Shown: piece after piece, positions 8,055-28,618 of the stretch
How the letters are laid out: each line of letters starts with the position of its first letter
Numbering within the stretch: position 1 is the first letter of the stretch
Virus record (IMG/VR): IMGVR_UViG_2585427793_000015
Span: 1-28,857 of that record
DNA from: a virus
Lineage: Duplodnaviria; Heunggongvirae; Uroviricota; Caudoviricetes
Length of the DNA stretch: 28,857 nucleotides
Strand: one strand, 5' to 3'
Translations under genes and position numbers: made by a program
The notes under the pieces: generated by a model
Databases searched by the model: none
What the model was told of the DNA's origin: nothing
Seen by the model: the letters and a program-made list of their open reading frames with translations, nothing else

Positions 8055-9530
8055 TTAAAGTTTGAACTGAATCAGGCCTGCCAGCACACGCAGCTGGTTC
8101 ACCAGATTCGGGTGGCAGATAAAGTTCAGGCGGTTTTTATCACTGCTGTCGCGTGTCACCTGAAGCGTGTCCCTGTAATCGCTGAAGTTCTCCACAAGGC
8201 CCGCCGGGAGGAGTTCGGTCTGGCAGATATCCAGCAGCTCTGCGGTGCACAGCTTCGGCGTCATCACCGGCTGCCCCGCATCCAGCGAGTCCAGCACGTC
8301 ATCGTCCGCCAGCTTGTGGCGCGGATAACGGTTCGTGAAACGGTTCTTGATGATGTAACGGATACGGCCCAGCGTGGCGGGTGACTGCACATCCAGGTAC
8401 GACACATCCGCATCACCGTACTGATTAACCCGGTACATGGTGATTTCACGCTCGATGCAGACGTTATCCCCGGCGTCCACCATGTGCGTGGCAATGCCGT
8501 CATGCAGCAGCAGGTTACGTTCCGGCATATCCCAGCGAACATTACGCGCAGGCGGCAGAATGCCGGTCAGAACCAGCGTCTGAAGCGGACGCGCCGGGTC
8601 AATGGCAAGGTGATACGCTGCCGTTGCGCCGTATGACGCGGCCCACATCCACGCCGGGTGCGGTGACAGGTTGGTGCCGATACAGCTAATCAGCCAGTCA
8701 TTGCGGGTTTCACCAAACGTGCCGGTTTCCCCGTGCGTGCCACGAAACGCTGTCCACAGCTGCGCCTCCATCATTTTGAGCGGCCCCCAGCGATTCAGCA
8801 GTTCATCACGCAGGGTGTTCAGGCTTTTCGTGTCGGTGAACGGGGCGATGATATCGGTAAACCACTCCGGGCCGATGGCCGCAACGGCATCCGCCATTTC
8901 CGGTGTCCCGGTGCCGTCGGTAAACGCGGTTGCGGTCACCTTCACACCTGCCGGGAAGGCTTCACCGGTGTAGTAGTTCAGGCGAACGTCGGCACCGTTG
9001 CCGGTGACGCCGTGCCAGTTCACGGTCAGCTCCACGGTATCCGTGGCATCATCCTTCACCGCAGCGGCCACCTGCGTGGCAGGCTTTTTCGTCACCGCAT
9101 CAGCAATGGCTTTTGCAATGTTTTCCTTCGTAGCCCCGGCGCTCACGCTCACCTGAACGGACACACCGTTAATCAGCAGTGCCACCGTTCCGGCTTCAGT
9201 CGCTGTCCCCAGCACGGTCAGCGTGGCTTTTGCGGCAGCGCCTTCAGGCGCGGCAACCGGCATTGCCCAGGGTTCCGTGTACGTGTTGGCACGACGCAGC
9301 ATTTTGAGCATTTCAGCCAGCATCGACCCTTTGCCATAAAGCTGGTCTGCCTGGCTGTCACTGGTGATGCGGGTCAGTGACAGGGCGTCTGCGCTGCCGG
9401 ACGATACCGCATGGCCCATGACCAGAATTTTTCGGCCTTGCGCGGATGCACCATCCAGCGCCTGTGAATTGTCGATATCGATCCAGACAAGCGGGACGCG
9501 GATATCATCAGGAATTGAACCCAGCGACAT
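8055..9530 (-). CDS. Tail sheath protein (Mu gp39 L-like)
   Basis: ORF trimmed to Met24 (MSLGSIPDD...), which has an AAGAGGAAG ribosome-binding site 7 nt upstream; ~491 aa; followed by the tube gene. Confidence 0.85.
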   Translation of the reverse strand: MSLGSIPDDIRVPLVWIDIDNSQALDGASAQGRKILVMGHAVSSGSADALSLTRITSDSQADQLYGKGSMLAEMLKMLRRANTYTEPWAMPVAAPEGAAAKATLTVLGTATEAGTVALLINGVSVQVSVSAGATKENIAKAIADAVTKKPATQVAAAVKDDATDTVELTVNWHGVTGNGADVRLNYYTGEAFPAGVKVTATAFTDGTGTPEMADAVAAIGPEWFTDIIAPFTDTKSLNTLRDELLNRWGPLKMMEAQLWTAFRGTHGETGTFGETRNDWLISCIGTNLSPHPAWMWAASYGATAAYHLAIDPARPLQTLVLTGILPPARNVRWDMPERNLLLHDGIATHMVDAGDNVCIEREITMYRVNQYGDADVSYLDVQSPATLGRIRYIIKNRFTNRYPRHKLADDDVLDSLDAGQPVMTPKLCTAELLDICQTELLPAGLVENFSDYRDTLQVTRDSSDKNRLNFICHPNLVNQLRVLAGLIQFKL

Positions 9531-14539: not shown

Positions 14540-16103
14540 GAGCAGTGTCTCCCAGTGCTCGCGCCTTAAAGCACACCTCTGCCAGTTGCAGGGCAAAGTC
14601 GTCCGCGTTCAGCGTTTCCTGAAGCTCAGGCAGGCGTTTCAGAAAGTCATCAAAACTGTCGCATTCCTGCGCCAGTGTCAGCACCGGGTTCGTGAACGCC
14701 TCGCCGGTTTTCTGCCAGTCACGCAGGGCATCATCCACCATCTGTGCCAGTTCGTCGGGGTGTTCCCGGTTCAGGGCGACGCGCTCACGGTTCATCGCCA
14801 TATCACCTGGCACCCCGGCGGACACCGGATGCAGAACATCAGCCCCGTCGTCCGGTTCAGCCAGGCCGAACCGGTCCCGCAGCTCCGATTCCTGAACCCG
14901 CAGCCCCCGGTCAATCAGCGGCACCAGAGCATCTGTCAGCGCCTTCAGATCTTCTGCTTCACTGATACGCAGAACAACGCGGGGATAGTGCGCCTGTGGC
15001 CCGTAGTTGGCCTCGATGTAGGGCCGCACCAGATATTCATTCAGCGTGTTAGCCAGCTGCCGCGCGTCCCAGCGCACAATGTCCATGCGCACCTGATTGT
15101 GCACGTCCGCCTGTGAACGCGAACTGCCGTTATCCGTGGTCATGGTCTGCCCCAGCACAGCCTTACTGATTTGCGCATCACACCATTCCGCCATTTCACG
15201 GAACAGTGCGCCGCCGTTATTCCGGCTGGCGGTTTCCTGCATCTCCAGTTGCATGGACTGCGGAATGGCACACCCGGCATCCGAGGCAATGGACGCAATC
15301 GCGTCAATCAGTACGCGGATTTGCTCCTCCGTGGCGTTGGGACCGTATTTCCCTACCGTAACCGGAATGCCGAACTTTTCCGCAAATGCCCACCAGTCGC
15401 GCACGGTAAAGGATTTCAGCATGTACATTACCGCCACCAGACGGGCCAGACCGTTACGCAGCGGCAGACCGGATTTCAGACGCGGCTGGTGAACAATGAA
15501 TTTTCCCGGTGTCAGCGGTACGCCATCCACCGGCTCATCGTCAGTCAGCAGGCGGAACTGGCGCAGCGTGGGCTTTTCGGCTTTCAGAAAACGGGGATCA
15601 ACCCACTCATAATCACGGGGCACCCAGTGGTTGTTGCGGGTGTTCCAGAGAATTTCACAGACCGCCACACCTTTTCCCAGCCCGTCGAGCAAGTCAAACA
15701 ACAGTTCGGGAATTTGCGGAGCGTCCATCAGCGCCCGGATGGCGTCCGCCAGCTGCACGTCGGCATCGTCATCACTGGCGGCAACCACCACCGGTTCGAT
15801 ACCGGCTACCGTCAGCTTGCGGGTGCGCAACACCGAAGCGTAATGCAAATCGCGTTCTTCCATCTCTTCGGCAAGGATAAAAAAATCACGTGTGATGCCG
15901 TCGGCGGCATTGCGCAGAATACCTGCCAGCCTGCCGGGATTCAGCCCGGAAGCGATACTGATGCCCGGCGAGGCCGAGCGCACCCCCGCCTGACGCGGAC
16001 GGGCCTGTACTTCATCGAGCCTCTCTTTTTTCAGCGTATCTTCCTCACCGGTTGCCGGGTTCAGCAGACGGCGAACGGCTCCGGCCAGTTGTTTCAGGTT
16101 CAC
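14532..16103 (-). CDS. Portal protein (Mu gp29 H-like)
   Basis: 523-aa ORF, ATGA overlap with the terminase large subunit stop; size and synteny. Confidence 0.8.
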   Translation of the reverse strand: MNLKQLAGAVRRLLNPATGEEDTLKKERLDEVQARPRQAGVRSASPGISIASGLNPGRLAGILRNAADGITRDFFILAEEMEERDLHYASVLRTRKLTVAGIEPVVVAASDDDADVQLADAIRALMDAPQIPELLFDLLDGLGKGVAVCEILWNTRNNHWVPRDYEWVDPRFLKAEKPTLRQFRLLTDDEPVDGVPLTPGKFIVHQPRLKSGLPLRNGLARLVAVMYMLKSFTVRDWWAFAEKFGIPVTVGKYGPNATEEQIRVLIDAIASIASDAGCAIPQSMQLEMQETASRNNGGALFREMAEWCDAQISKAVLGQTMTTDNGSSRSQADVHNQVRMDIVRWDARQLANTLNEYLVRPYIEANYGPQAHYPRVVLRISEAEDLKALTDALVPLIDRGLRVQESELRDRFGLAEPDDGADVLHPVSAGVPGDMAMNRERVALNREHPDELAQMVDDALRDWQKTGEAFTNPVLTLAQECDSFDDFLKRLPELQETLNADDFALQLAEVCFKARALGDTAHA

Positions 16104-17635: not shown

Positions 17636-18213
17636 GCGCTAATCCCCAGAAGTTCACGTTTGATGGTGTCAGCCGCACCACCTGACAGACCGCCCGTTCT
17701 GACCAGTTCTTCGGTTTTCTCTGCCATCTCCTGCGCAAACGCATCGCGGATCGCTTTCTCGCGTTTATGGCTGGGCATGGCTGCCGCTTCCAGACGCTGG
17801 GCAACCAGCGCCAGTTGGCCCAGCGCCTTCGGTGCAACGGGCTTGTCGTCTTCTGCCATCGACATGGACGTTTCAAAGGCCAGCGTTTTTACAAACTCCA
17901 TCAGCAGCTTGCCGACGTCTGATGTTGGCGCGGAACCCAGCTTTGCCGCCCAGACCTCGGCCATCTCGCGGGAGGCGCGGATTTTGGCCCCGACTTTTTC
18001 CATACGGCTGGCATAGCGGTTTAAGCCCGTCCGGCTTAACTGCATCTCTTCCGGCAGGTTGTGTTCGTCAATCAGGGCGTTGATGGCTTCGCGGATTTCT
18101 TCCTGCGTGTGCCGCTTTTCCCGCAGCATCTGATGTAACTGCTCCCGGATGCTGTCCGGGAGTAAATCCACTTTGGAAAGACGGCCACGGGTGGGGCGTT
18201 GTTCATTTTCCAT
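17632..18213 (-). CDS. Mu gp27-like protein (candidate terminase small subunit)
   Basis: 193-aa ORF, ATGA-coupled to the terminase large subunit; basic N-terminus (MENEQRPTRGRLSKVDLLPDSIREQL) consistent with a DNA-binding N-terminal domain. Confidence 0.55.
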   Translation of the reverse strand: MENEQRPTRGRLSKVDLLPDSIREQLHQMLREKRHTQEEIREAINALIDEHNLPEEMQLSRTGLNRYASRMEKVGAKIRASREMAEVWAAKLGSAPTSDVGKLLMEFVKTLAFETSMSMAEDDKPVAPKALGQLALVAQRLEAAAMPSHKREKAIRDAFAQEMAEKTEELVRTGGLSGGAADTIKRELLGISA

Positions 18214-18490
18214 CTTCAGACCTCTGCGTTTTCAGACCGGCGTATATTTCTTCACGAACGGACTGAATATCCTTACTTAACAGCTTCCACAGCCGCGCAC
18301 ATGCCGGTGATGATCGCAGGGCGCGTTTCATGGGGGTATCCGGTGCATCCGGGTTCCAGGGCTTTCCTGTCTGTTTTTCGTATGCACGGACAATGGCGTT
18401 TTGCTCAATATCTGCCAGCACAAGGCAGTACGCCAGTTGCCGCACGACGGCCCGTTCTCCGCGACTTAACGGCTTCAGTTTTCGGGCCAT
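18203..18490 (-). CDS. Hypothetical protein (Mu gp26 position)
   Basis: 95-aa ORF overlapping the gp27-like start by 11 bp. Confidence 0.45.
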   Translation of the reverse strand: MARKLKPLSRGERAVVRQLAYCLVLADIEQNAIVRAYEKQTGKPWNPDAPDTPMKRALRSSPACARLWKLLSKDIQSVREEIYAGLKTQRSEDGK

Positions 18491-18492
18491 GC

Positions 18493-18786
18493 TCAGTCCC
18501 TCGCACGGGGTTTTTTAACGCCCGGAACGCTGGACAGGCCGTTTGCCACATCCTCGCCGCTGCCGGTGATTTCAGCCACGTAACAGCCGCCCACATCAGA
18601 CAGACGAACCAGCCCCTGCTCGCGAAGCCATGCAAGCTGAGTGCGCACCACATCACGGGATACCTTATGACCGTAAGCCTGAAGGCAGGTCTGCAACACG
18701 GATTCATTCGCGCTGTCGCCACAGTCCAGCAGGGAACGCAGTAACACCAGACGACGGTCTTCAGTGAGGATCTCTTTCATCGCCAT
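18493..18786 (-). CDS. Hypothetical protein, possible winged-helix
   Basis: 97-aa ORF; the RTQLAWLREQGLV segment resembles a recognition helix/wing; 1-nt overlap with the upstream gene. Confidence 0.4.
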   Translation of the reverse strand: MAMKEILTEDRRLVLLRSLLDCGDSANESVLQTCLQAYGHKVSRDVVRTQLAWLREQGLVRLSDVGGCYVAEITGSGEDVANGLSSVPGVKKPRARD

Positions 18787-19091
18787 TAATTTTTTTCCTT
18801 TAACTCGTTCTCTAATAACAAATCGCTGATGCGGGATACCTGGCGGATGGATGGCCCCAGTTCTTTGATTTCTCCCCGCAGATTGCTGATATCCAGTTGC
18901 AGGCGGTGGAACTCATCACGGTCAGGTAAATGGTGTACCTGGCTTTCCATCACCGACACGCGGGAACGGAGTGAATCAAACTCTTCACGTTTGACGTAGG
19001 TTTTCGCCAGTATCAACTGAAGCAGGTTTATTCCTGTCATCAGCAATGCCCACAGAATGGGCCAGTTGGCTCTGATCATTTCCCAGGACAC
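18786..19091 (-). CDS. Membrane-anchored coiled-coil protein (i-spanin-like architecture)
   Basis: 101-aa ORF with an N-terminal hydrophobic segment (WPILWALLMTGINLLQLILA) followed by a charged helical region; architecture resembles type II inner-membrane spanin subunits. Confidence 0.4.
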   Translation of the reverse strand: MSWEMIRANWPILWALLMTGINLLQLILAKTYVKREEFDSLRSRVSVMESQVHHLPDRDEFHRLQLDISNLRGEIKELGPSIRQVSRISDLLLENELKEKN

Positions 19092-19303
19092 GTTTTCCTC
19101 CTGCGTTCCCGAATATGCTGACAGTCAATACAGGTCACCACATCCGGCAGCGCCGCAAGGCGTTGTGCCGGAATAACGTTCCCACAGTCATTGCAGCAGC
19201 CCCGACTATGGGGCGCTTCTTTTGTCCGCGTCTGCCAGGCGTTAACGACGCTCTGACGTTCGTTCATAACCACTTCACTGATGCGGTCGATTTCGTCGGT
19301 CAT
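19076..19303 (-). CDS. TraR/DksA-family C4 zinc-finger protein
   Basis: 75-aa ORF with a CxxC-N17-CxxC motif (CNDCG...CIDCQ), the hallmark of the TraR/DksA family. Confidence 0.75.
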   Translation of the reverse strand: MTDEIDRISEVVMNERQSVVNAWQTRTKEAPHSRGCCNDCGNVIPAQRLAALPDVVTCIDCQHIRERRRKTCPGK

Positions 19304-19908
19304 TTCGGCCCCGCAGAGATTTTGTGACGGCTCGATTTGCTGTACCGGGCAAAGCCGTCCATGGTTCTTACTCCGAGATAGCCCAGCGCCGGGGTAAGCA
19401 ACATCAGCGTGATATCCCAGTCCGGTGACGGCATATGCAGTGTGATACCTCTGGCACCGGCAATGGCTCCGGCAATCTGGCCACAGGAGAGCAACAGCAC
19501 ATAGGTCAGACTGCTGTAACAGGAAAGACGGGCCAGCAGCGGGCGCGTCTGGCGCACATAGCTGTCCGCAGCGTTGTCACCATTGCGGATGGTTTCCTGC
19601 TGTTCGTGATGCGCGGCCTGCTCGTCAGCCAGCACCAGCTTCTGCCGTTCCACCTCAAGCTGTTGTAACTGGACTTTCAGCGTTTCCAGTTGCATCAGTT
19701 GCTCCGGTGACAACGCCGTCAGTTGTTGTTCCAGAATGCGTTGCTGTTCGGTAACCGGCAGGCTTTCCCGGACGCTTTCCACCATACCGGCCACCGAGTC
19801 AGCGGCGGCAGATGTGCTACCACCAAACCAGCGCCCGACGGAACGAATCAGCCCCGGCCCGGCTTTCAGCAGAACAGAGGCGATGCCTGAAAGGGTTAAC
19901 GGATCCAC
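19300..19908 (-). CDS. Membrane protein with central coiled coil and C-terminal TM helices (3TM-holin-like)
   Basis: Start reassigned to GTG at 19908, which has a perfect GGAGG 6 nt upstream (TGGAGGTTTCCCGTG); N-terminal DPLTLSGIASVL segment, Gln/Glu-rich coiled coil, two C-terminal hydrophobic helices. Confidence 0.5.
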   Translation of the reverse strand: MDPLTLSGIASVLLKAGPGLIRSVGRWFGGSTSAAADSVAGMVESVRESLPVTEQQRILEQQLTALSPEQLMQLETLKVQLQQLEVERQKLVLADEQAAHHEQQETIRNGDNAADSYVRQTRPLLARLSCYSSLTYVLLLSCGQIAGAIAGARGITLHMPSPDWDITLMLLTPALGYLGVRTMDGFARYSKSSRHKISAGPK

Positions 19909-20321
19909 GGGAAACCTCCATACAGATAACGCTGAAGACAGAGCAGACCGCCGCAACTGCCACCACACAGCCAGAACACCGGATGCACCGGTGACATCAT
20001 CATCAGCGAGCCGAAGACGCAGCAGAAATATCCCAGCGCCCAGACCACCCATGACCACACGATGATGTGGCGACCAAAAGCCCGGTAACGGACCTCAGGC
20101 AGCAGGCGAAATGACGCATTCCCGAGGCTTGCGCTGTATGAAAACAACACCACCCCGGCAAAGGACAACAACATCAACACGAACGATCGCCAGCCACATA
20201 ACATGCTGATGATGAACATGCAGAGTGTCAGTCCGGCCAGCGGCCATGGCGTTCTCATCAGTCGGGAACAAATCAGCCAGTCACACGGTTTTAAAATTTT
20301 GTTCATTACCTTTTTCCACAT
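19896..20321 (-). CDS. Multi-pass small membrane protein (holin candidate)
   Basis: Start trimmed to an internal Met (MWKKVMNKIL); 3-4 predicted TM helices; start is uncertain (20321 or 20306). Confidence 0.45.
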   Translation of the reverse strand: MWKKVMNKILKPCDWLICSRLMRTPWPLAGLTLCMFIISMLCGWRSFVLMLLSFAGVVLFSYSASLGNASFRLLPEVRYRAFGRHIIVWSWVVWALGYFCCVFGSLMMMSPVHPVFWLCGGSCGGLLCLQRYLYGGFPWIR

Positions 20322-20532
20322 TGAATTTTTCCCTGTACTTCTGGCACTGCCAGAAAATGTCCCGTGTATCCACGGAGTTCCAGCCACGCATGTAGTAGCT
20401 GGCGTGTGTACCGTCATGACCGGTATAGTCCACCGGCTCTGGCGGCGGACCTCCGGCCATACGATGTAAAACCTCCTGACGCAGGCGGTCACGCCGCCCG
20501 GCTCTCAGCGAGGCATCCCAGCCTTTACCCAT
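20281..20532 (-). CDS. Hypothetical protein, coupled to the endolysin
   Basis: 83-aa ORF whose ATG lies 1 nt after the endolysin TGA (GGGGTGATATG); no TM segment. Confidence 0.4.
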   Translation of the reverse strand: MGKGWDASLRAGRRDRLRQEVLHRMAGGPPPEPVDYTGHDGTHASYYMRGWNSVDTRDIFWQCQKYREKFNVEKGNEQNFKTV

Positions 20533-20533
20533 A

Positions 20534-21130
20534 TCACCCCCGCGTGGCGGACATGATGCCTAAAGGGGTATCGATGATTTCCAGACAGGCGTCGGTCAGC
20601 TTTTCCATGCGGTTAAACCAGCCGTTCAGGTATTTACCCTGGGCGGGTTTTGACTTGATGATGTCGGCATAAAAGCGGGAACGACGGACAATGCAGCGGG
20701 CCAGCAACCAGTCCGGGGTGGACAGACTCACGGCCTTACGGGTACGCGGGCCGATGATGCCGTCAGCATCCACATCAGCGGCTTCCTGCAAAATCCTGAT
20801 AGCTTTTTTAACGCCATGCTGAACGGCTGCATCGAACACAAAGATCGCCACGCCATCAGGCCACTGATCACATCCGGCAGGCAGCCAGTAATCGCGCCAG
20901 TAAATCTGCGCGACCTGTTCGCGGGTTAAATCCCTGATGCGGGTATCCGGTTTACCGTCGCCGCTGACATCGGTTTTGCCGTCAATCACACCGTCGCGGC
21001 GGTCAGAAATGCCGTATTTGGTTTCGCCGCCACGGTCAGTGGGGTCATTGACATAGACGCCTTCGATATCGGGACGCTGAATAAAATTCAGCGCATGTTC
21101 AAAGGCCGGGGAGAATTTTTGATTTTCCAT
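20534..21130 (-). CDS. Endolysin, glycoside hydrolase family 108-like with peptidoglycan-binding C-terminal region
   Basis: 198-aa ORF with an N-terminal EGVYVNDPTDRGGETKYGIS motif (GH108 consensus EGGYVNDP.D.GG.T..GIT) and C-terminal DG.IGP.T pattern; first gene after the intergenic hairpin/T-run element. Confidence 0.8.
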   Translation of the reverse strand: MENQKFSPAFEHALNFIQRPDIEGVYVNDPTDRGGETKYGISDRRDGVIDGKTDVSGDGKPDTRIRDLTREQVAQIYWRDYWLPAGCDQWPDGVAIFVFDAAVQHGVKKAIRILQEAADVDADGIIGPRTRKAVSLSTPDWLLARCIVRRSRFYADIIKSKPAQGKYLNGWFNRMEKLTDACLEIIDTPLGIMSATRG

Positions 21131-21141
21131 AAAAGCACCTG

Positions 21142-21170
21142 TGAAGCAGATTTAAACGTGGTCTGCTTCA
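21142..21170 (-). promoter_or_regulatory. Inverted repeat TGAAGCAGA-N11-TCTGCTTCA in the endolysin leader
   Basis: Perfect 9-bp arms, 12-40 nt upstream of the endolysin ATG. Confidence 0.4.
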
Positions 21171-21185
21171 TAGTGCCGGAGGCAT

Positions 21186-21209
21186 AAAAAAAGCCGGATT
21201 TACCGGCTT
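21186..21209 (-). promoter_or_regulatory. Conserved dyad element AAGCCGG-N5-CCGGCTT plus T7 run, copy 1 (upstream of the endolysin)
   Basis: Perfect 7-bp inverted repeat with a 5-nt loop, followed on the minus strand by TTTTTTT; centred ~70 bp upstream of the endolysin ATG. Either a Rho-independent terminator closing the early operon or an activator site of a late promoter, or both. Confidence 0.6.
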
Positions 21210-21229
21210 CATTGAATTAAAAAAGATGA

Positions 21230-21709
21230 CTACTCATCACCTTTGATGGAGCAATCTATCATCATATTTTTCCCCATAGGGAGAAACTTTGTCTGAATGT
21301 GAAAGCCCAGAATCTTATACGTTAGTCCGTAACCTTTAACTTTTGCTGCGGAAGCCACCATGTCAATAACTCGTTCCTGCTGTTCTTCAGTTAATTGACC
21401 AATTACAGATTCAACAACCCGCGAACATGCAGCAAAGGAGGGCAGAGCGCCTACAGGATTATCATCAAAATCTTTTACAGTCGTCGTTGAACTAACGACC
21501 TTATTATTAATCATAAACAATCCAAACTTGCTGTGAGCAGTTTCGGTTCCACCGTTCTTAATTGAATCGCCCCCTTTAAGAGGCTTCCAGCTATTTAGTG
21601 CAATGAGGTCTTTTTCGGCCAGGCGTTTTTTGATTACCTCTTCAGAGGGCAGCTTTGCCGCATTAGCGCAAAATACGCTCAGTAAAAACATAAGAGGAAA
21701 GTATTTCAT
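21230..21709 (-). CDS. Secreted/periplasmic hypothetical protein (moron; occupies the position of Mu C)
   Basis: 159-aa ORF with a classic signal peptide (MKYFPLMFLLSVFCANA/AKLP); visibly AT-rich; start overlaps the mor stop as ATGA. Confidence 0.6.
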   Translation of the reverse strand: MKYFPLMFLLSVFCANAAKLPSEEVIKKRLAEKDLIALNSWKPLKGGDSIKNGGTETAHSKFGLFMINNKVVSSTTTVKDFDDNPVGALPSFAACSRVVESVIGQLTEEQQERVIDMVASAAKVKGYGLTYKILGFHIQTKFLPMGKNMMIDCSIKGDE

Positions 21710-22116
21710 GGCTCATCCTTAAATAGTTGCATTTGATATTTTCCACGCTCCAGCCTTCGCATTCTTTTGATGGCCTGATATACCGTTTTGTAGGTCACTT
21801 TGTAACGCTGCACCAACTCTGCTACGTTTTTTCCATCAAAATCACGCCAGATGCGCATGTCTCTGATCAGATTTTCCAGTATTTTCCCTTTCGGAACATA
21901 TACCTGAATCCCTCCGATATGATTGCAAATTGCCACTACCAGCTCAAGAGAGTGGGCAGGGTTAACACCAAGCCTTATCAGTTCCTGTCGCAGCAGAGCA
22001 TTCAGCTCTGAAAGTAGCGCCGGGTAAACATATTTTTCCTGATAATCGTGAAGATATTCCAGAACACTGTCGTCCCGGAAGTCTTCGAATAAATCCTGCT
22101 CTTTCATCTGTTTCAT
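21706..22116 (-). CDS. mor: Mor/C-family transcriptional activator
   Basis: 136-aa ORF with a C-terminal Mor/C-type HTH region (GGIQVYVPKG...IRDMRIWRDFDGKNVAELVQRYKVTYKTVYQAIKRM); ATGA-coupled to the gemA-like gene as in Mu. Confidence 0.8.
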   Translation of the reverse strand: MKQMKEQDLFEDFRDDSVLEYLHDYQEKYVYPALLSELNALLRQELIRLGVNPAHSLELVVAICNHIGGIQVYVPKGKILENLIRDMRIWRDFDGKNVAELVQRYKVTYKTVYQAIKRMRRLERGKYQMQLFKDEP

Positions 22117-22664
22117 ACAGCAATTCTCCCGCTGTTTCGTGCGCGGGCATACGCACTGGTCAGTGCATCATAGCCGCGCAGCTCCCGCCCGGTTTCGCTC
22201 ACAGGTAAAGGCACACCATGTCGGGCAAAGGCGTCCCGGATGCAGCGCATATGCCACTGTTTGAGCGTTTCGAGCACAACCTGCAACGATTCCCCGTGAC
22301 ACCAGGCCAGAGTGGAAACACCCTGACCGCCATTACGTCTGGCCGTCAGGCGTTCAACGTATTTGTCCAGCGCGGCGTCGCTGATATCGGAAACGAAACC
22401 ATCAAGAAACATCTGCTGCCAGATTTTGTAAATCTTCTCGCGTGGTGTGACATGCCCCTTAAAGCGACGGCGGGGATGTTTTTTCTGCTTCTTAAAACCG
22501 CGCTCTTTCATGGCATCGAGCACCTGTTCCAGTTGTGCGACGGACAGTTCGCGGCAACTGGTTTTGCCTGTGCACTGCACCAGAAAGGCGCGGTAAGTGT
22601 CATCGTCGAGTTGTAGATCACGCCGGGCGACATGAATTAATTTAATCAGGGATGTGCGACTCAT
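22113..22664 (-). CDS. gemA: GemA-like regulatory protein (Mu gp16 family)
   Basis: 183-aa ORF with N-terminal LIKLIHVARRDLQLDDDTYRAFL, typical of Mu gp16/GemA-like proteins; immediately upstream of mor. Confidence 0.7.
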   Translation of the reverse strand: MSRTSLIKLIHVARRDLQLDDDTYRAFLVQCTGKTSCRELSVAQLEQVLDAMKERGFKKQKKHPRRRFKGHVTPREKIYKIWQQMFLDGFVSDISDAALDKYVERLTARRNGGQGVSTLAWCHGESLQVVLETLKQWHMRCIRDAFARHGVPLPVSETGRELRGYDALTSAYARARNSGRIAV

Positions 22665-23064
22665 TTTGCCCCATCTCCTTCATGCAGTGTTTTTCCACCC
22701 ATGCCACACGACCAAGATTCAGGTGACACCTTTCAAACCTGCACTCTTCCTTGTAGTGCGCGCTGTCCTCATTGAAAGGCAATAATTCATCCAGTCCGTT
22801 CGCGATAAAATCTGTGCGCAATTGTTCTGCTGCATCTTCGCCGTATGCTCCGATGGATTCGAAATAACTATAAGCATTGCTACATAATCCAAAATACCGG
22901 ACAAATAATTCCCCCTCTGTTTCTGGTGCACCATTTTTTAACCACTGGTTATAGGCGACATAAAAATCATAAAGATGTTTTCTGGTAGTGACAGATGTGG
23001 ATTGAATTTCATTTTTCTCTGCGTTATTCATTTCGTAATACCTCTTCGCAATAAAAGATTTCAC
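22642..23064 (-). CDS. Hypothetical protein (AT-rich accessory gene)
   Basis: 140-aa ORF, visibly AT-rich, Tyr/Phe/Cys-containing; no recognisable motif. Confidence 0.5.
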   Translation of the reverse strand: MKSFIAKRYYEMNNAEKNEIQSTSVTTRKHLYDFYVAYNQWLKNGAPETEGELFVRYFGLCSNAYSYFESIGAYGEDAAEQLRTDFIANGLDELLPFNEDSAHYKEECRFERCHLNLGRVAWVEKHCMKEMGQNESHIPD

Positions 23065-23360
23065 TGGATGCCAACCGCTACCGGAGCCGGTGAATAATCA
23101 AGAATGAGATAGCGCAGGACGTGGTCGGTGATATTCCAGCCACTGGAGCCACAAATAAAACGTCCCAGCCGGATATCGATATACGCCATCACAAAACGGG
23201 GCATTCCCTGTTTGCACATCTCGTCGCCCACTTCTGCAACGATGTAAACCGACTCGCAGGTCAGTACGCCTGTCGCAAATTCTTTTGCCAGTGCCGGAAT
23301 AGCATTGCCTTCCAGCCAGGGCAAAGAGCGGCGGAACGCGCCATTGAGCATCATCAACAT
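23061..23360 (-). CDS. Hypothetical protein, possibly the C-terminal part of a frameshifted gene
   Basis: 99-aa ORF, ATGA-coupled to the downstream gene; frame stays open upstream to a stop at 23388-23390; see the overlapping 23098..23589 ORF. Confidence 0.4.
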   Translation of the reverse strand: MLMMLNGAFRRSLPWLEGNAIPALAKEFATGVLTCESVYIVAEVGDEMCKQGMPRFVMAYIDIRLGRFICGSSGWNITDHVLRYLILDYSPAPVAVGIQ

Positions 23361-23589
23361 CGGGATGTTCCGTTGTTGCGTTTCGTCTTACTGGCGGCGT
23401 CGGACGAGGGCGCGGAACGTCATAAAATCCGTTGCATTCTGTCAGCATTCCGGCATCAACCGCATCACGCAGGAAATACACCATTGACGAGGGAGGCATC
23501 TTCATTTTTTCAGCCAGAACGCCACAGGTCAGACGCCCGTAAGCCCGTAGTAATGTGCTGACACCGTTCAGAATTTTTGCATCAATCAT
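23098..23589 (-). CDS. ORF with a plausible N-terminal winged-helix-like domain (about 58 aa), then an Arg/Pro-rich tail that looks out of frame
   Basis: 163-aa ORF; residues 1-58 look like a real DNA-binding domain, the rest is low-complexity and overlaps the 99-aa ORF in another frame. Likely frameshift, pseudogene or sequencing error near 23390-23420. Confidence 0.3.
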   Translation of the reverse strand: MIDAKILNGVSTLLRAYGRLTCGVLAEKMKMPPSSMVYFLRDAVDAGMLTECNGFYDVPRPRPTPPVRRNATTEHPDVDDAQWRVPPLFALAGRQCYSGTGKRICDRRTDLRVGLHRCRSGRRDVQTGNAPFCDGVYRYPAGTFYLWLQWLEYHRPRPALSHS

Positions 23590-23687
23590 TTTTTATTTCT
23601 CAGATATCAGATTCAGGCGCGAGCAATCCCCTGACGCATCGCGCCATAATTAAAAGAGTGTGAATTAATTAAATATTAATGGTGGTA

Positions 23688-24212
23688 TTAAATACCGGCT
23701 TCCTGTTCAAATGGAATAATAGAAAAATCTTCAATGCCCGATTTAACTGTAATTCCGGCAACACCTGCGACCGCTTTCGGCTCCAGTAAAATCGCCTCCT
23801 TGTTGATTTCCTGTTTCGTGCGAATAAAACGTTGCAGGCCAAGACGCTCCAGCGTTTCCATTACCGCATCCACACCGCGAATACTTACTGATGGTGGGCG
23901 CTGACGCCATGACACATCACCGGTGACCAGGTTTGCCGTCTTCACCTTGCCGCCGTTCGTCAGTTCGTCACGGTTCGCTTCACACCATCCCTGAATGCCT
24001 TTTGAAAGGGTTTCAATACTGGTTTTAAGTGGCGCAATCTGTGAGGCGTATTTTTCTGTAATCTCGGCGATAGCGTCATTCATTTCCGTTTCAAGTCGTG
24101 CTGCTTCGCGTTGCAGGTCACCAATCCGGCGGATATCACATACCACGGCATCTCGGGATTGCGGAACATAAGTCGCTGCGGCGTTCCTGATTCGTTTTGC
24201 TGACTTAGCCAT
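23688..24212 (-). CDS. gam: Host-nuclease inhibitor Gam (Mu Gam / Ku-like)
   Basis: 174-aa ORF, the length of Mu Gam, with conserved-looking blocks (VPQSRDAVV.DIRRIGDLQREA.RLETEMNDAIAEITEK...GWCEANRDELTNGGKVKTANLVTGDVSWR); CAGGAGC ribosome-binding site upstream of the ATG. Confidence 0.9.
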   Translation of the reverse strand: MAKSAKRIRNAAATYVPQSRDAVVCDIRRIGDLQREAARLETEMNDAIAEITEKYASQIAPLKTSIETLSKGIQGWCEANRDELTNGGKVKTANLVTGDVSWRQRPPSVSIRGVDAVMETLERLGLQRFIRTKQEINKEAILLEPKAVAGVAGITVKSGIEDFSIIPFEQEAGI

Positions 24213-24232
24213 ATAAATAAAGCTCCTGTTAA

Positions 24233-24532
24233 TTAATATTCGCTGTATACAATACTGGATACAGCACGATTGCTTAATTCCATCTTTTGGGCAATGACAT
24301 GAATAGCCAGCCCTTCTTTATAAAGTTCACGACACAAATATTTGTCGCGCTCACTGATTTTGTATACACACAACGATATTCCGTACCTTCTGGCATGTGC
24401 CCGGAGAGCGGTTGTGGCAACGTTCAGTTTTTTCGCCATTTCCTCGACGGTCATTTTCCCGACACTGGCTTCGATAAATTCCCGGTCTTCGCGTGACCAG
24501 CGTTTACGATTGCACTTCATTCCGGTCACCAC
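24233..24532 (-). CDS. Small DNA-binding protein with two HTH-like segments (second one Mor/C-like)
   Basis: 99-aa ORF; MTVEEMAKKLNVATTALRAHARRYG and ERDKYLCRELYKEGLAIHVIAQKMELSNRAVSSIV, the latter loosely matching the RD..I...(F/Y)..G....(L/V)A...Y.(L/V)(S/T)...(I/V) pattern of the Mor/C C-terminus. Confidence 0.5.
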   Translation of the reverse strand: MVTGMKCNRKRWSREDREFIEASVGKMTVEEMAKKLNVATTALRAHARRYGISLCVYKISERDKYLCRELYKEGLAIHVIAQKMELSNRAVSSIVYSEY

Positions 24533-24952
24533 TCAGTACAACAGGGGGGCGCGCAGTGATGCCGGAATATGCCGCAGCGATAACTGAACCGCTTTCAGGG
24601 CAAGGGAAGAATACGTCCCCTGCGTCCAGCCATTCGCCATTCGCCGGTAATCGCGCCAGATGTTCTGCCACTGCTCCCGTGCGTCCGGGTCTGACGCGCT
24701 GATGTATTCGCGGTCCATGACGTATTCCCATAAATCCACATTGAAAGCATTGCCAAACGTAATGGCGCGGAATACCGCCTCTCCGCAATAACGCGCACAA
24801 ATGCTGTAATGGTCAAATGCAATCAGGTAAGTCTTTTCGCCATACCCCTCAACTTCGCGCGCGCAAATAAACTCGCGTAAGTCTCCGCCATTGTTATTAC
24901 GCATTTTGATTCGAATTAATGCCTGGATTTCGTTTCTGATTCTGGCGTTCAT
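24533..24952 (-). CDS. Hypothetical protein (early accessory region)
   Basis: 139-aa ORF with an AAAGGAA ribosome-binding site ~9 nt upstream of the ATG; abuts the downstream HTH gene with no gap. Confidence 0.5.
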   Translation of the reverse strand: MNARIRNEIQALIRIKMRNNNGGDLREFICAREVEGYGEKTYLIAFDHYSICARYCGEAVFRAITFGNAFNVDLWEYVMDREYISASDPDAREQWQNIWRDYRRMANGWTQGTYSSLALKAVQLSLRHIPASLRAPLLY

Positions 24953-24981
24953 TGTCAGCGTTCCTTTCAGTGACGTGTTCC

Positions 24982-25230
24982 TTAAACTGTCGTTGTTGTG
25001 ACACTGCCACCCGTGATGACGCCGTCATTTTTCAGAATTTCAATGGCCTCATGGGTTGACTCGCAAACAATATCCCGACTTTTTTCCAGAACCAGTAACG
25101 CTACCATGCCAGCGAGTGTACCTTTATCGCCGTCCAGCTCTGCACTGTGTTCTACGTTAATACTGGTACGTAAACGCTGCCCTTTAACTTCAGATGTCGC
25201 ATTTTTGATTTCGATAATGACTTTTGCCAT
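24982..25230 (-). CDS. Hypothetical protein (early accessory region)
   Basis: Start trimmed to Met19 (MAKVIIEIKN), preceded by GAGGAA 7 nt upstream; ~82 aa. Confidence 0.5.
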   Translation of the reverse strand: MAKVIIEIKNATSEVKGQRLRTSINVEHSAELDGDKGTLAGMVALLVLEKSRDIVCESTHEAIEILKNDGVITGGSVTTTTV

Positions 25231-25262
25231 TTTGTTATTCCTCACAAATAAATAAGCCGTTA

Positions 25263-25490
25263 TTAACGCCAGATAATCTGGCAACCATTAAGGCGGGCCG
25301 TCCATACGGAACGGGCAACCCCTGATTTATGCTCCATAATCCTGACAGCGTTTCTGACCAGCTCCGGTGGTGGGCAGGTAATTTCAAGCACCGGACGGGC
25401 CACGCCGAGATATGATTCATTTACGTGACTCCCGTGCGCCTGTAACCAGTTCTGCGCATCCGTTGCCATTTTTATATTTCGTGACATCAT
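25263..25490 (-). CDS. Small hypothetical protein directly after B (position of Mu kil)
   Basis: 75-aa ORF with an AAAGGA ribosome-binding site; positional analogy only, no sequence motif recognised. Confidence 0.4.
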
Positions 25491-25505
25491 GGTTTATGTC
25501 CTTTA

Positions 25506-26456
25506 CTACCAGTTCAGTAATTTAGGGTTGCTGTAAGCCTCCTTAAAAGCCGCCTTAATGTGACTTTTATTCAGGGATGAACCGGCACCTTTCGCCGCCA
25601 GCCACGCATGATTCAGTGTGTGAGTCAATACACGCAATCCCCCGGGCTTTTCGGCTACCCTCATCAGCAGGTCCAGCTCATCTTCCTGTGTTACTCCCCA
25701 TGCTTTGGCTACAGCCATCACATCAGTCTTTTTCACTTTGCGCAGTTGTTTTGTCATGGCAAAACGGCTGAACAGACGGGCCAGTTCATCAGTCCCACGA
25801 CGGGTGGCATCCGCCATCTGTTTCGGGTTGCCAATTAAAACCATCCCCACGCCAGTGGCATCCTGAATGGCGCGTAATTGCTCCAGACCATCCACACTTA
25901 AGTGATCAGCTTCATCAATAATCAGCAGGGGGTTAACACGTCCACTGGTTTCTTTTCCACCGCCCAGTTTTCTGCGAATGGCGCGGGTTATATTCCCCTT
26001 ATTTCTTCCCGGATTATTAATTTCCAGCGCATATGCTACTTCAAGGAGGCATTCCGTTACGCTCGAATGTGCCGGAGCAAGAGTCACCATCCAGGCATTA
26101 GCTGTTTTGCGGCAATATTCCCGGGCAGCAAAGGTTTTTCCGACACCCGGTACGCCAACAACGACACTGATAATCCCGAGTGAGCGCACTGTTTTAAACA
26201 GCTCATGCAAATCACAAAATGTCTGGGTCTTCACAACGCCGGGGGCACCTGACAAATTCTGCCCTTTCTGCCATACCCGATACCATTCCTGTAATTTGTC
26301 ATACATGCCTTCAACATTGCCTCTGTACTTTCCTTTGCGAAGATCAGAGAGAGTTGCCGGAGACATTCCGGCTTCATCAGCAATATCTTCCTGAGACTTG
26401 TCGCCCTCGTTAATCAAAGCGTTAATAGTGTTGAAAACATCATCAATATCAGTCAT
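25506..26456 (-). CDS. B: DNA transposition ATPase B (MuB-like, AAA+)
   Basis: 316-aa ORF with an N-terminal HTH region, Walker A (GVPGVGKT) and Walker B (LLIIDEADHL); GGAGG ribosome-binding site 8 nt upstream; follows the transposase gene. Confidence 0.9.
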   Translation of the reverse strand: MTDIDDVFNTINALINEGDKSQEDIADEAGMSPATLSDLRKGKYRGNVEGMYDKLQEWYRVWQKGQNLSGAPGVVKTQTFCDLHELFKTVRSLGIISVVVGVPGVGKTFAAREYCRKTANAWMVTLAPAHSSVTECLLEVAYALEINNPGRNKGNITRAIRRKLGGGKETSGRVNPLLIIDEADHLSVDGLEQLRAIQDATGVGMVLIGNPKQMADATRRGTDELARLFSRFAMTKQLRKVKKTDVMAVAKAWGVTQEDELDLLMRVAEKPGGLRVLTHTLNHAWLAAKGAGSSLNKSHIKAAFKEAYSNPKLLNW

Positions 26457-26500
26457 AGTATTTCCTCCATCATTACAGATTTACTTTGTTTTCCTTGTTT

Positions 26501-26530
26501 AACAGTCCGTTACCGCGGACTGTTTTTTAT
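26501..26530 (+). terminator. Plus-strand intrinsic-terminator-like hairpin in the A-B intergenic region
   Basis: AACAGTCCG-TTACCG-CGGACTGTT followed on the plus strand by TTTTAT (GTT TTTTAT); on the minus strand the same hairpin is not followed by a T-run. Confidence 0.45.
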
Positions 26531-28618
26531 TCAGGCCAGCGGATCATCTTCTTCCTGCATGGCAAAAAGTTTTTGCATCCCCAGCCTGAAATCGCGTTCA
26601 AATTCTTCGTCATGCTCTTCTTCATATTCCGGTTGCTGAACTGCCACCACATTACCAACCGGGCGATAAACATTATCCAGCCAGGGTTCGGCCTGTTTGT
26701 GTTCCAGAATCTGAATACCTTCATCTTCAGCATCACGAATTTTTTCCTCAGCACGTTTGCGCATTCCTTTAATACGCTGCTGCTGTTTGTGATATTCCGC
26801 ACTGACAGGGAAGGCTGCGCGTTTATTCCCGTTCCATATCGCCTCACAGATAAAGCTGTCGTCCTTACGTCGTACCGTAATTCGCTCGGCATCGTGAATG
26901 TCATAGCTGATAAGTACCTTACGGCCATGTTCATCACGCAGCTCTGGCGCGTAGTAAATATTGTTCAGCCACTGGATTTCGCAGCGTCTTACCGGACGCT
27001 CCACCATCGGGCGGAACATGTCGCGCAGCTCAAGATCACTCAGCCACTCAATTTCAGTGTCTTCTTCCGCTAAGCGTTTTTTTCTGAACTCTGCCGGGCT
27101 GTAATGCCGCCCGTTCGGTTTCATCGGCAGCTCAGAATGCGGGCGGTTGTTGTACCATTCCACGCCTTCACGAATAGCCTCGATAAGTTCCGCCCACGAT
27201 GGCAGCTCGCGCATTGCCGCTTTCTGGCGGTCGTTCAGTGGCTTGTCCTGTTGCAGGGTGTTAAACGCTGAACGCAGATCACGGTTAAGTACACGCAACG
27301 ATTCCCGGTCAGCACCTTTGCCAAAATAGGTGCGATACCTCCTGGCTATACGCATCGGCAGCGTCCGGTTCAGGCGTTCAATAATGCCGCGCCCCTGTGG
27401 ATTACCGGCAATACCGGTAGGGTGTTTAATCCCCAGACGGGGCAGAATCCCTACGACCTCTTTGTCCAGCATGTCAGCCGTTTCACCAGAACCGTTATCC
27501 GAGTAATACAGAAACGGTTTTCCGTGGTTGCGAATGCCATGCCGTATCGCTCCGGCAACAGCGAACACGTTCTCGGCAAGATCAAGACTCCAGCCAACCA
27601 CAAACCGGGTTCCACCGTCGATCACAAACGTGACTTCTGGTGAGAATGGACGTCCGTGGATCGGATGCGCACATTTCAGCTTCATACCGTGACCGTCACC
27701 AATCCAGACATAATTCACTGGCATAACTGTCCAGTCGCGGCGGGGGAACCCTTCAAGCTGACGGGATTCACTGCCGGTAACGCGTCCTTTTTGTTTCACC
27801 ACTTCCGGCAATTTCTTCATGGCATAACGAACCACATCGTAAGAAGGCATCACCTCCAGCATGTACGGTTCGTCTGCATGGCGACACTGCCATTCCGCGA
27901 CAAAATCCTCGTAGGCTTCTGACATAGGTCTGCCGTTAGCCTGGCGATACTGCGCCAGAAACTCAGGCAGCCAGCTGATTTCCTCGACTTTCACTTCGTC
28001 GCGTTTACCAGGTGCCAGTAACAGCAACCTTTCAGCGGCGTTTTGTGCTTTGTTAAATTCAGCTACCCAACGTTTGAGCGTAATTGCGCTCAGTGTTCGC
28101 TCTTTCCCTTTACGGGCATTAGCAGTAATGGCCAAAGATTCCAGACGTTCTTCCAGGTTACCCTGCGCTAACCGAGACACAATAAAACGTATAGCGCTGG
28201 CACAACTGAATCCCGGCTCCTGGCTGATTCGCAGAACTTCACAGACAAGAGCAATGCGCGCTTCTGCAACTTTACGTTGATTTTCCGTAAGCGCATTCAG
28301 ACGCTCTTCTACCAGTTGTGGCGAACCGCGATATGCCTCAACAGGCTGTACAACATTTTGTTTGCGTTCACGCTTTACAGGAGGCTGGGTAGTTATCTCC
28401 TGCGGTGCGGTTGCCATCAGTTGAGCTACATGGCGCTCACGTAACGCCCGCTGTGTAACCGGAGGGAGGCAGTCGATGCTGTATTCAATGGTTTTTGAAC
28501 CCGCACGTTTGCGCCTGAAATGCTCAGATGAGGCCAGTTTCCTTATGGAATACCGCACCCCTTGCGCAGTTCCCGGCATACCTGGTAGCCCTACAAGCTC
28601 ATTAACTGACACAAACAT
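26531..28618 (-). CDS. A: DDE transposase, MuA-like
   Basis: 695-aa ORF with an N-terminal DNA-binding region (LPGMPGTAQGVRYSIRKLA) and a central catalytic region; AAGGTGG ribosome-binding site; immediately downstream of ner. Confidence 0.9.
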   Translation of the reverse strand: MFVSVNELVGLPGMPGTAQGVRYSIRKLASSEHFRRKRAGSKTIEYSIDCLPPVTQRALRERHVAQLMATAPQEITTQPPVKRERKQNVVQPVEAYRGSPQLVEERLNALTENQRKVAEARIALVCEVLRISQEPGFSCASAIRFIVSRLAQGNLEERLESLAITANARKGKERTLSAITLKRWVAEFNKAQNAAERLLLLAPGKRDEVKVEEISWLPEFLAQYRQANGRPMSEAYEDFVAEWQCRHADEPYMLEVMPSYDVVRYAMKKLPEVVKQKGRVTGSESRQLEGFPRRDWTVMPVNYVWIGDGHGMKLKCAHPIHGRPFSPEVTFVIDGGTRFVVGWSLDLAENVFAVAGAIRHGIRNHGKPFLYYSDNGSGETADMLDKEVVGILPRLGIKHPTGIAGNPQGRGIIERLNRTLPMRIARRYRTYFGKGADRESLRVLNRDLRSAFNTLQQDKPLNDRQKAAMRELPSWAELIEAIREGVEWYNNRPHSELPMKPNGRHYSPAEFRKKRLAEEDTEIEWLSDLELRDMFRPMVERPVRRCEIQWLNNIYYAPELRDEHGRKVLISYDIHDAERITVRRKDDSFICEAIWNGNKRAAFPVSAEYHKQQQRIKGMRKRAEEKIRDAEDEGIQILEHKQAEPWLDNVYRPVGNVVAVQQPEYEEEHDEEFERDFRLGMQKLFAMQEEDDPLA

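Follow-up and report, generated by a model that had tools for sequence, protein, structure and literature searches.

How does a phage release a soluble endolysin and break open a Gram-negative host when no spanin gene can be recognized beside its lysis genes? This question is raised by a block of six genes in IMG/VR virus record IMGVR_UViG_2585427793_000015 (Caudoviricetes), of which we analyzed positions 1 to 28,857; this whole stretch of 28,857 nucleotides is called the window below. The block belongs to a Mu-like transposable prophage of Escherichia coli. Its genes encode, in order of transcription, a GH108 endolysin, an 83-aa homolog of Mu gp18, a protein with four transmembrane segments (the 4-TM protein), a 202-aa membrane protein, a TraR/DksA zinc-finger protein, and a DUF2730 protein. 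All six are intact and follow one another in tight coupling on the minus strand (21130..18786), with starts and stops that abut or overlap throughout, so the block fits a single operon. The initial annotation, made from the sequence alone, had described a non-canonical lysis cassette, and the open reading frames (ORFs) that it listed are all present on the minus strand where it placed them.

Every gene of the block matches a PHROG family at E ≤ 1e-19, and megablast with the 3.6-kb region found a match in 53 of 5,426 complete E. coli genomes (about 1%), 32 of them with at least 80% coverage; given these matches and this conservation, the genes are not chance ORFs. A related prophage in strain TD225-C4 is complete. 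It is 33.6 kb long and inserted in rlmB; a repressor, a Mu-type transposase, and Gam stand at one end, followed by Mor, the terminase, the genes for head, tail, and tail fibers, and, at the other end, Com. The prophage in the window encodes equivalents of Mor, gp16, gp26, gp27, and terminase, as shown by profile matches and by blastp against Mu proteins. Using tblastn and blastp, we found the same order of genes (endolysin, gp18-like, about 200 aa, TraR, DUF2730, gp26, gp27) in Vibrio phage 1.028.O, Shewanella prophage MuM16-2, Klebsiella phage Kp4866-3, and Vibrio phage ZX4290; the identities of the module proteins across these four relatives are 30 to 60%. MuM16-2 was considered apparently inactive by its authors. 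The word “non-canonical” overstates the case, since the pairing of GH108 with DUF2730 in Mu-like phages has already been tabulated: in Table S1 of that study, eleven plaque-sequenced Vibrio myophages combine DUF2730 with an endolysin made of GH108 and PG_binding_3 domains (Chamblee et al. 2022, PMC9239132). The locus is thus a new E. coli example of a catalogued, uncharacterized type of module and not a new kind of system.

The endolysin and the holin candidates

That the cassette is centered on a GH108 endolysin, and not on a lysozyme of the T4 or lambda type, is borne out by the profile searches. The protein has a GH108 domain (PF05838, E = 1.8e-23, 83.3 bits against a gathering score of 21.2) and a PG_binding_3 domain (PF09374, E = 2.8e-17, 63.1 bits against 24.6), and it matches the endolysin family phrog_315 (E = 3e-53). 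It also aligns with PDB entries 2IS5 and 2IKB (E = 7e-20) over the conserved EG.Y.N.P.D.GGET..GI motif. Residues 23-41 (EGVYVNDPTDRGGETKYGI), which align with 2IS5, follow the pattern E-G-x-Y-x-N-x-P-x-D-x-G-G-x-T-x-x-G-I, and the Glu of this N-terminal motif is the catalytic residue according to the literature. A hydropathy check of the endolysin showed no hydrophobic window and no signal, signal-arrest-release (SAR), or transmembrane (TM) segment. The endolysin is therefore predicted to be a soluble GH108 muramidase, and such an enzyme requires a lesion in the membrane for access to the wall.

The best holin candidate of the block is the 202-aa protein, and we consider it probable that this protein acts as a holin. 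Its gene starts with the GTG at 19908, which is preceded by GGAGG and a 6-nt spacer. PGAP calls the same 202 aa, and the 252-aa form in the ORF list is not a real gene. This is the protein that was noted earlier as a coiled coil with C-terminal TM helices, a GTG start, and a perfect GGAGG, and that description stands. From its N terminus, the protein has a hydrophobic, Gly-rich helix, an acidic coiled coil, the motif QETIRxGD..YVRxTRP, and two TM helices. It matches phrog_1544 (E = 4e-57), and an exhaustive HMMER search delimited a family of 130 clusters at 50% identity. In an alignment of 69 members, R122, P123, and R181 are invariant; the core QxTIRxE..DxYVRxTRPxxARxS is followed by two hydrophobic helices, and the Gly-rich hydrophobic segment at the N terminus is conserved as well. 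The median hydropathies of the three hydrophobic segments across the family are 1.36, 1.44, and 1.52. Across the family, the charge counts come to +3 ahead of TM1, -1 for the loop, +3 for the tail, and -6 for the coil. By the positive-inside rule, these charges would place the N-terminal domain of about 125 aa, with the coiled coil, and the C-terminal tail in the cytoplasm and would leave only about 12 loop residues on the periplasmic side.

Relatives and a structural model link this protein to PF11351 (GTA_holin_3TM). Nearly half of the aligned family members (32 of 69) match this profile at E ≤ 0.01, the best at 8.4e-9. An AlphaFold model made with the family alignment as input is all-helical, with a predicted local distance difference test (pLDDT) score of 91.4, and its top match in BFVD is “Holin of 3TMs, for gene-transfer release” (E = 6.4e-8, probability 1.00); a fold search of the PDB with the model gave no match at E ≤ 0.001. 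These homologs and the structure-based match suggest that the 202-aa protein is a divergent PF11351 relative. In common with the PF11351 holins of RcGTA and phage ICP1 (TeaA), it has three moderately hydrophobic segments, a Gly-rich “WFGG” N terminus, and an endolysin nearby. It differs from them in its length (202 aa against a profile of 123 positions), its additional acidic coiled coil, and its sub-threshold score. RcGTA pairs its PF11351-type holin with a muramidase of the GH108 type. The window endolysin scores 72.6 bits against the “holin-associated N-acetylmuramidase” model NF040573, below the cut-off of 240 bits, which is a weak pointer to such a pairing. With hhalign, the WFGG region of the 202-aa protein aligns with ICP1 ORF137 (78% probability, E = 1.8e-5), which we take to be TeaA, assuming that it is the GP137 of the TeaA paper. 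TeaA was placed in PF11351 by remote homology and acts as a holin when expressed alone (Hays & Seed 2020). Within PF11351, holin activity, that is, lethal holes, collapse of the proton motive force, and triggering by energy poisons, has been shown for ICP1 TeaA only; RcGTA is the one other system in which a holin of the family counts as proven.

The strongest argument for the holin assignment is gene neighborhood, which brings the family together with four types of soluble endolysin in unrelated phages. Homologs of the 202-aa gene lie directly downstream of a GH108 endolysin in Vibrio phage LP.1, an Amidase_2 endolysin in Vibrio phage 431E45.1, an LD-endopeptidase in Janthinobacterium phage Donnerlittchen, and a DUF5675 protein in ZX4290. 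Searches with tblastn found homologs in Mu-like phages with soluble endolysins and none in Mu, D108, SfMu, or the Pseudomonas Mu-like phages, which have SAR endolysins. In many genomes PGAP labels this protein a “TatA/TatE family subunit” (WP_032239570.1). The NCBIfam scan gave no Tat match at E ≤ 0.1, and the label looks like a misannotation.

Two more genes stand between those of the endolysin and the 202-aa protein. The 83-aa ORF begins 1 nt past the endolysin stop (TGA-T-ATG) and is translationally coupled to it, in line with the initial annotation; its product is a homolog of Mu gp18 (69% identity, E = 1e-36 by blastp) with further homologs in the Shewanella and Vibrio modules (E = 3e-12 and 3e-7). 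All of its database homologs are 64-90 aa long and carry a precomputed PF26867 match, and none is fused to another domain. We also considered a fusion of gp18 with the holin candidate, because the two share an ORF frame and because phrog_2121, a chimeric profile of 284 positions, matches gp18-like proteins (including Mu gp18) at positions 3-88 and holin-like proteins of about 200 aa at positions 89-284. This idea was rejected: among the homologs of either protein in the databases searched, none is a fusion of the two, and the longest member of the 202-aa family has 230 aa. We treat the profile as a clustering artifact and the shared frame as chance.

The 4-TM gene is nested in a 198-aa ORF (20492..19896). 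In near-identical prophages PGAP calls the 136-aa form (20306..19896), and an alternative ATG at 20258 would give 120 aa. The protein has four hydrophobic segments and matches phrog_12596 (E = 5e-44), and scans of Pfam, PHROG, and NCBIfam gave no match to a holin family. Its close homologs form only 4 clusters among 5.8 billion proteins, all from E. coli. The gene is absent from the Vibrio module, which is otherwise identical, and from the Shewanella module; like the 95-aa gene downstream of the block, it is an addition seen in enterobacterial prophages only. The protein resembles Mu gp19 in its position after gp18, its size, its 4-TM layout, and a motif, C-G-W-R-(A/S)-F, that closes TM1 and recurs in the divergent 4-TM alleles of TD225-C4 and Kp4866-3. 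The blastp match between the two is weak (E = 0.11 over 22 residues), and they belong to separate PHROGs (4975 for gp19 and 12596 for the window protein). By position, the 4-TM protein can at most be called a fast-evolving counterpart of gp19. In E. coli prophages that are otherwise nearly identical (99.9%), the 4-TM allele is wholly different, and so is the C terminus of the gp18-like protein (window 19896-20340 versus TD225-C4 locus 14951-15361); this allele swap is the reason for the megablast coverage of 89% in two pieces. In the TD225-C4 allele, TM1 ends in a good lipobox-like string (FLASC).

The DUF2730 protein and the search for a spanin

The last gene of the block starts with a GTG after AGGAGG. 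Residues 4-98 of its product cover positions 1-102 of the 102-position PF10805 profile, which defines DUF2730 (E = 1.3e-30, 105.9 bits against 24.9). By blastp, the protein is 27% identical to Mu gp25 (E = 5e-11), and it is 39 to 40% identical to its Vibrio and Shewanella counterparts. It has a single TM segment at residues 11-29. The first 9 residues have a net charge of 0, and five Lys or Arg residues follow the TM segment (KTYVKRE...). From this distribution of charges, the protein is predicted to be oriented N-out/C-in, with its helical C-terminal domain in the cytoplasm and a basic pair at the junction of membrane and cytoplasm.

The initial annotation had seen in this protein, with its TM segment and coiled coil, the architecture of a spanin. 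We do not retain this description: the match to DUF2730 is full-length, the protein is a homolog of Mu gp25, and its predicted topology is opposite to that of an i-spanin. The likeness to two-component spanins such as lambda Rz/Rz1 and Mu gp23/gp23.1 is superficial and amounts to one N-terminal TM segment with about 70 residues of helical domain after it; unlike them, the DUF2730 gene has no embedded or adjacent lipoprotein gene, and its product has no similarity to Mu gp23.

DUF2730 is defined by Mu gp25, a cytoplasmic protein that is tethered to the membrane in type I orientation (N-out, C-in) and needed for release of the SAR endolysin of Mu; Mu has no holin, and neither gp19 nor gp20 acts as one (Chamblee et al. 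2022, PMC9239132). In transposable phages DUF2730 is always found within 5 genes of the endolysin, whatever the endolysin type, and Mu-like phages with cytoplasmic endolysins also carry it; the same authors ask what it does in these phages and whether their lysis depends on it (Chamblee et al. 2022, PMC9239132). The window agrees with this pattern. DUF2730 is the fifth gene past the endolysin, Mor and gp16 are present in the prophage, and a Mu transposase is present in its relative. A releasin, as defined by function, has a SAR endolysin as its partner, and the N terminus of the window endolysin is free of hydrophobic and SAR segments. With no SAR endolysin for it to set free, the window protein cannot be what a releasin is in Mu. 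By sequence it is a member of the releasin family to which the function of the Mu protein is not simply transferable.

The initial annotation had found no obvious outer-membrane lipoprotein and had proposed a lipobox search in all frames. We ran this search with strict and relaxed patterns and with Mu gp23.1 as a positive control, which was recovered. It found no credible o-spanin in the 28.9-kb window, and no credible spanin in the whole TD225-C4 prophage or in the complete genomes of Vibrio phage 1.028.O and MuM16-2. Within 2.5 kb of the 202-aa homologs in Donnerlittchen, LP.1, and 431E45.1, the scan likewise found no spanin, and the PGAP annotation of the TD225-C4 prophage lists no Rz/Rz1. 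The block also has no i-spanin of the usual kind (N-in/C-out, with a periplasmic coiled coil); its only single-TM helical protein is the DUF2730 protein. The earlier observation that no o-spanin can be recognized therefore holds.

Three candidates for an outer-membrane factor were considered and rejected, of which only the first two came from the lipobox scan. An in-frame GTG at 19557 would give an 85-aa product with “LLSC” in the TM helix of the 202-aa protein; it leaves about 25 residues between anchor and TM segment and cannot span the periplasm. A 38-aa ORF (20119..20003, with “ATSSC”) that lies within the 4-TM gene is not conserved, as the alleles of TD225-C4 and Klebsiella have lost it. 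The gene for a secreted 159-aa protein upstream of the block is a moron of low GC content; its slot is variable and is filled by non-homologous genes in relatives.

Some genes of the relatives may be mentioned here as separate observations. In 431E45.1 a 58-aa, extremely basic ORF (MTKAKGKAKRVFNN...KKSKIK...) at 2866-3042 of the examined locus directly follows the holin-like gene; it might encode a disruptin-like outer-membrane factor or just a nucleic-acid binder. ZX4290 and LP.1 have lipoprotein genes of 190 aa (MLAGC, locus 707-1279) and 205 aa (VTGC, locus 8164-8781), respectively; these are genuine lipoprotein genes, but they do not adjoin the lysis genes, and their size is too great for an o-spanin.

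Setting of the module and comparison with Mu

The features of the locus are collected in the table below. The gp26 homolog (61% identity to Mu gp26, E = 3e-41 by blastp) is the downstream boundary of the module and not a lysis gene; beyond it are a gp27 homolog (47% identity to Mu gp27) and then the large terminase. The 95-aa protein encoded between the gp26 and gp27 homologs has about 19 Lys or Arg against 11 Asp or Glu residues by hand count and has no Pfam match. It has a counterpart in Kp4866-3 (91 aa) and none in the Mu, Vibrio, and Shewanella modules. The GC content shifts sharply from 55-60% in the late region (window 1-21000) to 43-50% in the early and regulatory region (21000-27000), which suggests a mosaic origin of the two halves of the prophage.

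Table. Features of the lysis locus and its flanks, with positions in the window.
Feature	Position	Strand	Basis
Mor-family activator	22116..21706	minus	60% identity to Mu Mor, 32% to Mu C
Secreted 159-aa protein, low GC	21709..21230	minus	Signal peptide
Hairpin and T-run, intrinsic terminator	21190..21210	minus	Terminator scan, alignment with Mu
Putative Pm-like promoter region with lysis-operon 5' leader	21131..21189	minus	Inferred from alignment with Mu Pm
GH108 endolysin, 198 aa	20534..21130	minus	PF05838 and PF09374, phrog_315
Mu gp18 homolog, 83 aa, soluble	20281..20532	minus	blastp against Mu gp18
4-TM membrane protein, 136 aa	19896..20306	minus	phrog_12596, hydrophobic segments
Holin candidate, 202 aa	19300..19908	minus	phrog_1544, sub-threshold PF11351
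TraR/DksA C4 zinc-finger protein, 75 aa	19076..19303	minus	PF01258, TIGR02419, phrog_54
DUF2730 protein, 101 aa	18786..19091	minus	PF10805, blastp against Mu gp25
Mu gp26 homolog, VpaChn25_0724 family, winged-helix-like	18493..18786	minus	blastp, NF050184 (122 bits)
Basic 95-aa protein between gp26 and gp27 homologs	18203-18490	minus	phrog_8988

The embedded TraR/DksA zinc finger of the initial annotation is real. The protein matches PF01258 (E = 1.9e-10), TIGR02419 (61.8 bits against a cut-off of 59.7), and phrog_54, and it has four zinc-binding Cys residues in a CxxC...CxxC arrangement (C36/C39 and C58/C61). Its ATG overlaps the stop codon of the 202-aa gene (ATGA), and a TraR gene is found at the same position of the module in Vibrio, Shewanella, and Klebsiella. 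Its N terminus, MTDEIDR, resembles the acidic N terminus of F-plasmid TraR. The probable role of the protein is modulation of the host RNA polymerase, not lysis. We also considered Mu gp24 as a TraR homolog. It has only a weak DksA_like match (E = 0.019) and belongs to a different PHROG, and we keep it as a positional analogue.

Upstream of the block, the terminator scan found the hairpin GAAGCCGGTAAATCCGGC followed by TTTTTTT (21210..21190), after the transcript of Mor and the moron. This hairpin and the bases that follow it (21120-21240) align with the region between mor and gene 18 of Mu, which contains Pm (Mu locus 655-765), and the same region aligns with Kp4866-3 (locus 1195-1325). We take the Mu hairpin to be the Mor-binding dyad. 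A scan of 21131..21189 for a sigma-70 consensus promoter found none, as expected for a promoter that depends on an activator. The TD225-C4 prophage has a single Mor/C-family gene. From this and from the alignment with Mu Pm, we infer that the Mor homolog drives the lysis and late operon from a Pm-like promoter. The arrangement suggests a two-tier cascade without the separate C/Plys tier of Mu, where the cascade has three tiers. The Mu Pm primer sequence contains the same hairpin (Chamblee et al. 2022, PMC9239132).

The secreted 159-aa protein has the signal peptide MKYFPLMFLLSVFCANA, cut before AK, and is encoded in an island of 43% GC between Mor and the terminator. Elsewhere this slot holds non-homologous secreted or membrane proteins, of 149 aa in MuM16-2, 150 aa in 1.028.O, and 110 aa (multi-TM) in Kp4866-3. 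It looks like a moron hot spot that is co-transcribed with Mor.

As in Mu, the module lies in a transposable phage, between Mor and the small terminase. The two share gp18, gp25 (DUF2730), gp26, and gp27 at the identities given above, a 4-TM protein after gp18, a small CxxC...CxxC protein just before the DUF2730 gene, and the terminator hairpin after the Mor operon. Mu differs in having a SAR endolysin of the GH24 family (gp22), spanins of the Rz/Rz1 type (gp23/23.1), the activator C with Plys, and no holin. The window differs from Mu in having a soluble GH108 endolysin before gene 18, the PF11351-like protein, and a bona fide TraR that replaces gp24; it has no spanin and only one Mor/C-family gene. 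The possibility, raised by the initial annotation, that these are the standard Mu gp19-gp25 equivalents is thus partly right: blastp identifies equivalents of gp18, gp25, and gp26, whereas gp24 and gp19 have positional analogues only. The same gene order, likewise without a spanin, is seen in the modules of the Vibrio Nahant myophages (for example 1.028.O, MG592412), martha 12B12, and vB-Vv-ZX4290, in which the identities to the window are 39% for the protein of about 200 aa, 37% for TraR, 39% for DUF2730, 60% for gp26, and 56% for gp27. The Vibrio modules are without the 4-TM and 95-aa genes, and martha 12B12 and ZX4290 swap only the endolysin (DUF5675 for GH108).

Routes to lysis

These results can be joined in one sequence of events. 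The operon would be transcribed from a Mor-dependent promoter just past the terminator hairpin, an element that also occurs in the middle promoter region of Mu. The GH108 muramidase would build up in the cytoplasm and the 202-aa protein in the inner membrane, where, on triggering, the latter would make a lesion that passes the endolysin to the wall. On the membrane's cytoplasmic side, the DUF2730 protein may act as an accessory or regulator of this release step. The TraR-like protein, co-expressed with the others, would most likely modulate the host RNA polymerase and not lysis, and the gp18-like and 4-TM proteins may be equivalents of Mu middle genes that are carried along with no required role in lysis. 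With no spanin encoded, rupture of the outer membrane would be passive or would be due to some further factor.

Several points weigh against the 202-aa protein as the holin of such a pathway. Against PF11351 the window protein itself reaches 19.5 bits, where the gathering score is 24.8. Only about 50 N-terminal residues are covered by the hhalign match to ICP1 ORF137, and ORF137 has no direct PF11351 match by hmmscan. In Donnerlittchen, a separate gene of a holin family (phrog_785) precedes the endolysin, and there the 202-aa homolog might serve as an additional holin, as an antiholin, or in another role. The pathway as a whole is also incomplete: the sequence analyses point to no particular role for DUF2730 beside a soluble endolysin, and a module without a spanin leaves the breach of the outer membrane unaccounted for.

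If the 202-aa protein were an antiholin or another regulator, the holin might be the 4-TM protein (20306..19896), which the initial annotation had called holin-like. It has four hydrophobic segments and the small size of a holin, and its gene is placed between those of the endolysin and the other membrane proteins, a position at which E. coli, Klebsiella, and Mu all keep a 4-TM gene. The same module of the plaque-derived Vibrio phages does without it, and these have soluble endolysins too. With so few clusters of close homologs, all in E. coli, with divergent alleles in sister prophages, and with no match to any holin family, the 4-TM protein is the weakest holin candidate. Its Mu counterpart, gp19, is not lethal, not triggerable by dinitrophenol, and dispensable for Mu lysis, and is thus not a holin (Chamblee et al. 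2022, PMC9239132). We consider this alternative unlikely. So is one in which DUF2730 is the primary export or release factor, which with the 202-aa protein as its partner would assemble or recruit a channel for folded endolysin, along the lines of an idea of Chamblee et al. that resembles twin-arginine translocation (TAT). It would fit the constant proximity of DUF2730 to endolysins of any type in transposable phages, the K/R-R motif (VKRE) found here too at the junction of membrane and cytoplasm, and the co-occurrence of the DUF2730 and 202-aa genes in all Mu-like phages with soluble endolysins that we examined. Against it, Mu gp25 on its own neither kills the cell nor makes holes (Chamblee et al. 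2022, PMC9239132), and the 202-aa family adjoins endolysins in non-Mu phages that have no DUF2730, and can therefore work without it.

Could the 202-aa protein, alone or paired with DUF2730, take the place of the spanins at the outer membrane? The spanin scans came up empty in the window, the full related prophage, the complete Vibrio relative, and the 2.5-kb surroundings of the homologs in three unrelated phages, and the Donnerlittchen homolog sits after the endolysin with another holin upstream, all of which would agree with such a role. The protein has no lipobox, and the periplasmic loop of about 12 residues that is predicted from the family-wide charges leaves the outer membrane out of reach, so we hold this to be very improbable. 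We give still less credence to the idea that the cassette is a decaying remnant of a cryptic prophage that has lost its spanin and whose genes are nonfunctional. In E. coli the element is known as a prophage only, and the Shewanella relative was reported as apparently inactive. Yet no ORF is broken, the ribosome-binding sites are good, and the starts are coupled; the TD225-C4 prophage is complete from repressor to tail fibers, and the plaque-sequenced Vibrio phages have the same order without a spanin.

Keeping the 202-aa protein as the preferred holin, we can put forward a broader proposal, speculative and rather doubtful in its entirety. A Mu-like lineage in E. coli, Klebsiella, and Vibrio, and other phages with PF11351-like genes, might lyse Gram-negative hosts without a spanin. 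DUF2730 would be the partner or antiholin, at the cytoplasmic face, of a holin with a large cytoplasmic domain, a state ancestral to the releasin of the Mu SAR endolysin, and a factor or mechanism that has so far escaped recognition would breach the outer membrane.

In itself, the locus is an ordinary, conserved prophage module. Its value is that the prophage brings into E. coli, a tractable host, the question posed by Chamblee et al. (2022) of what DUF2730 does when the endolysin is soluble, and that it is a model as well for lysis without a spanin and for whether PF11351-like proteins act as holins in enterobacteria.

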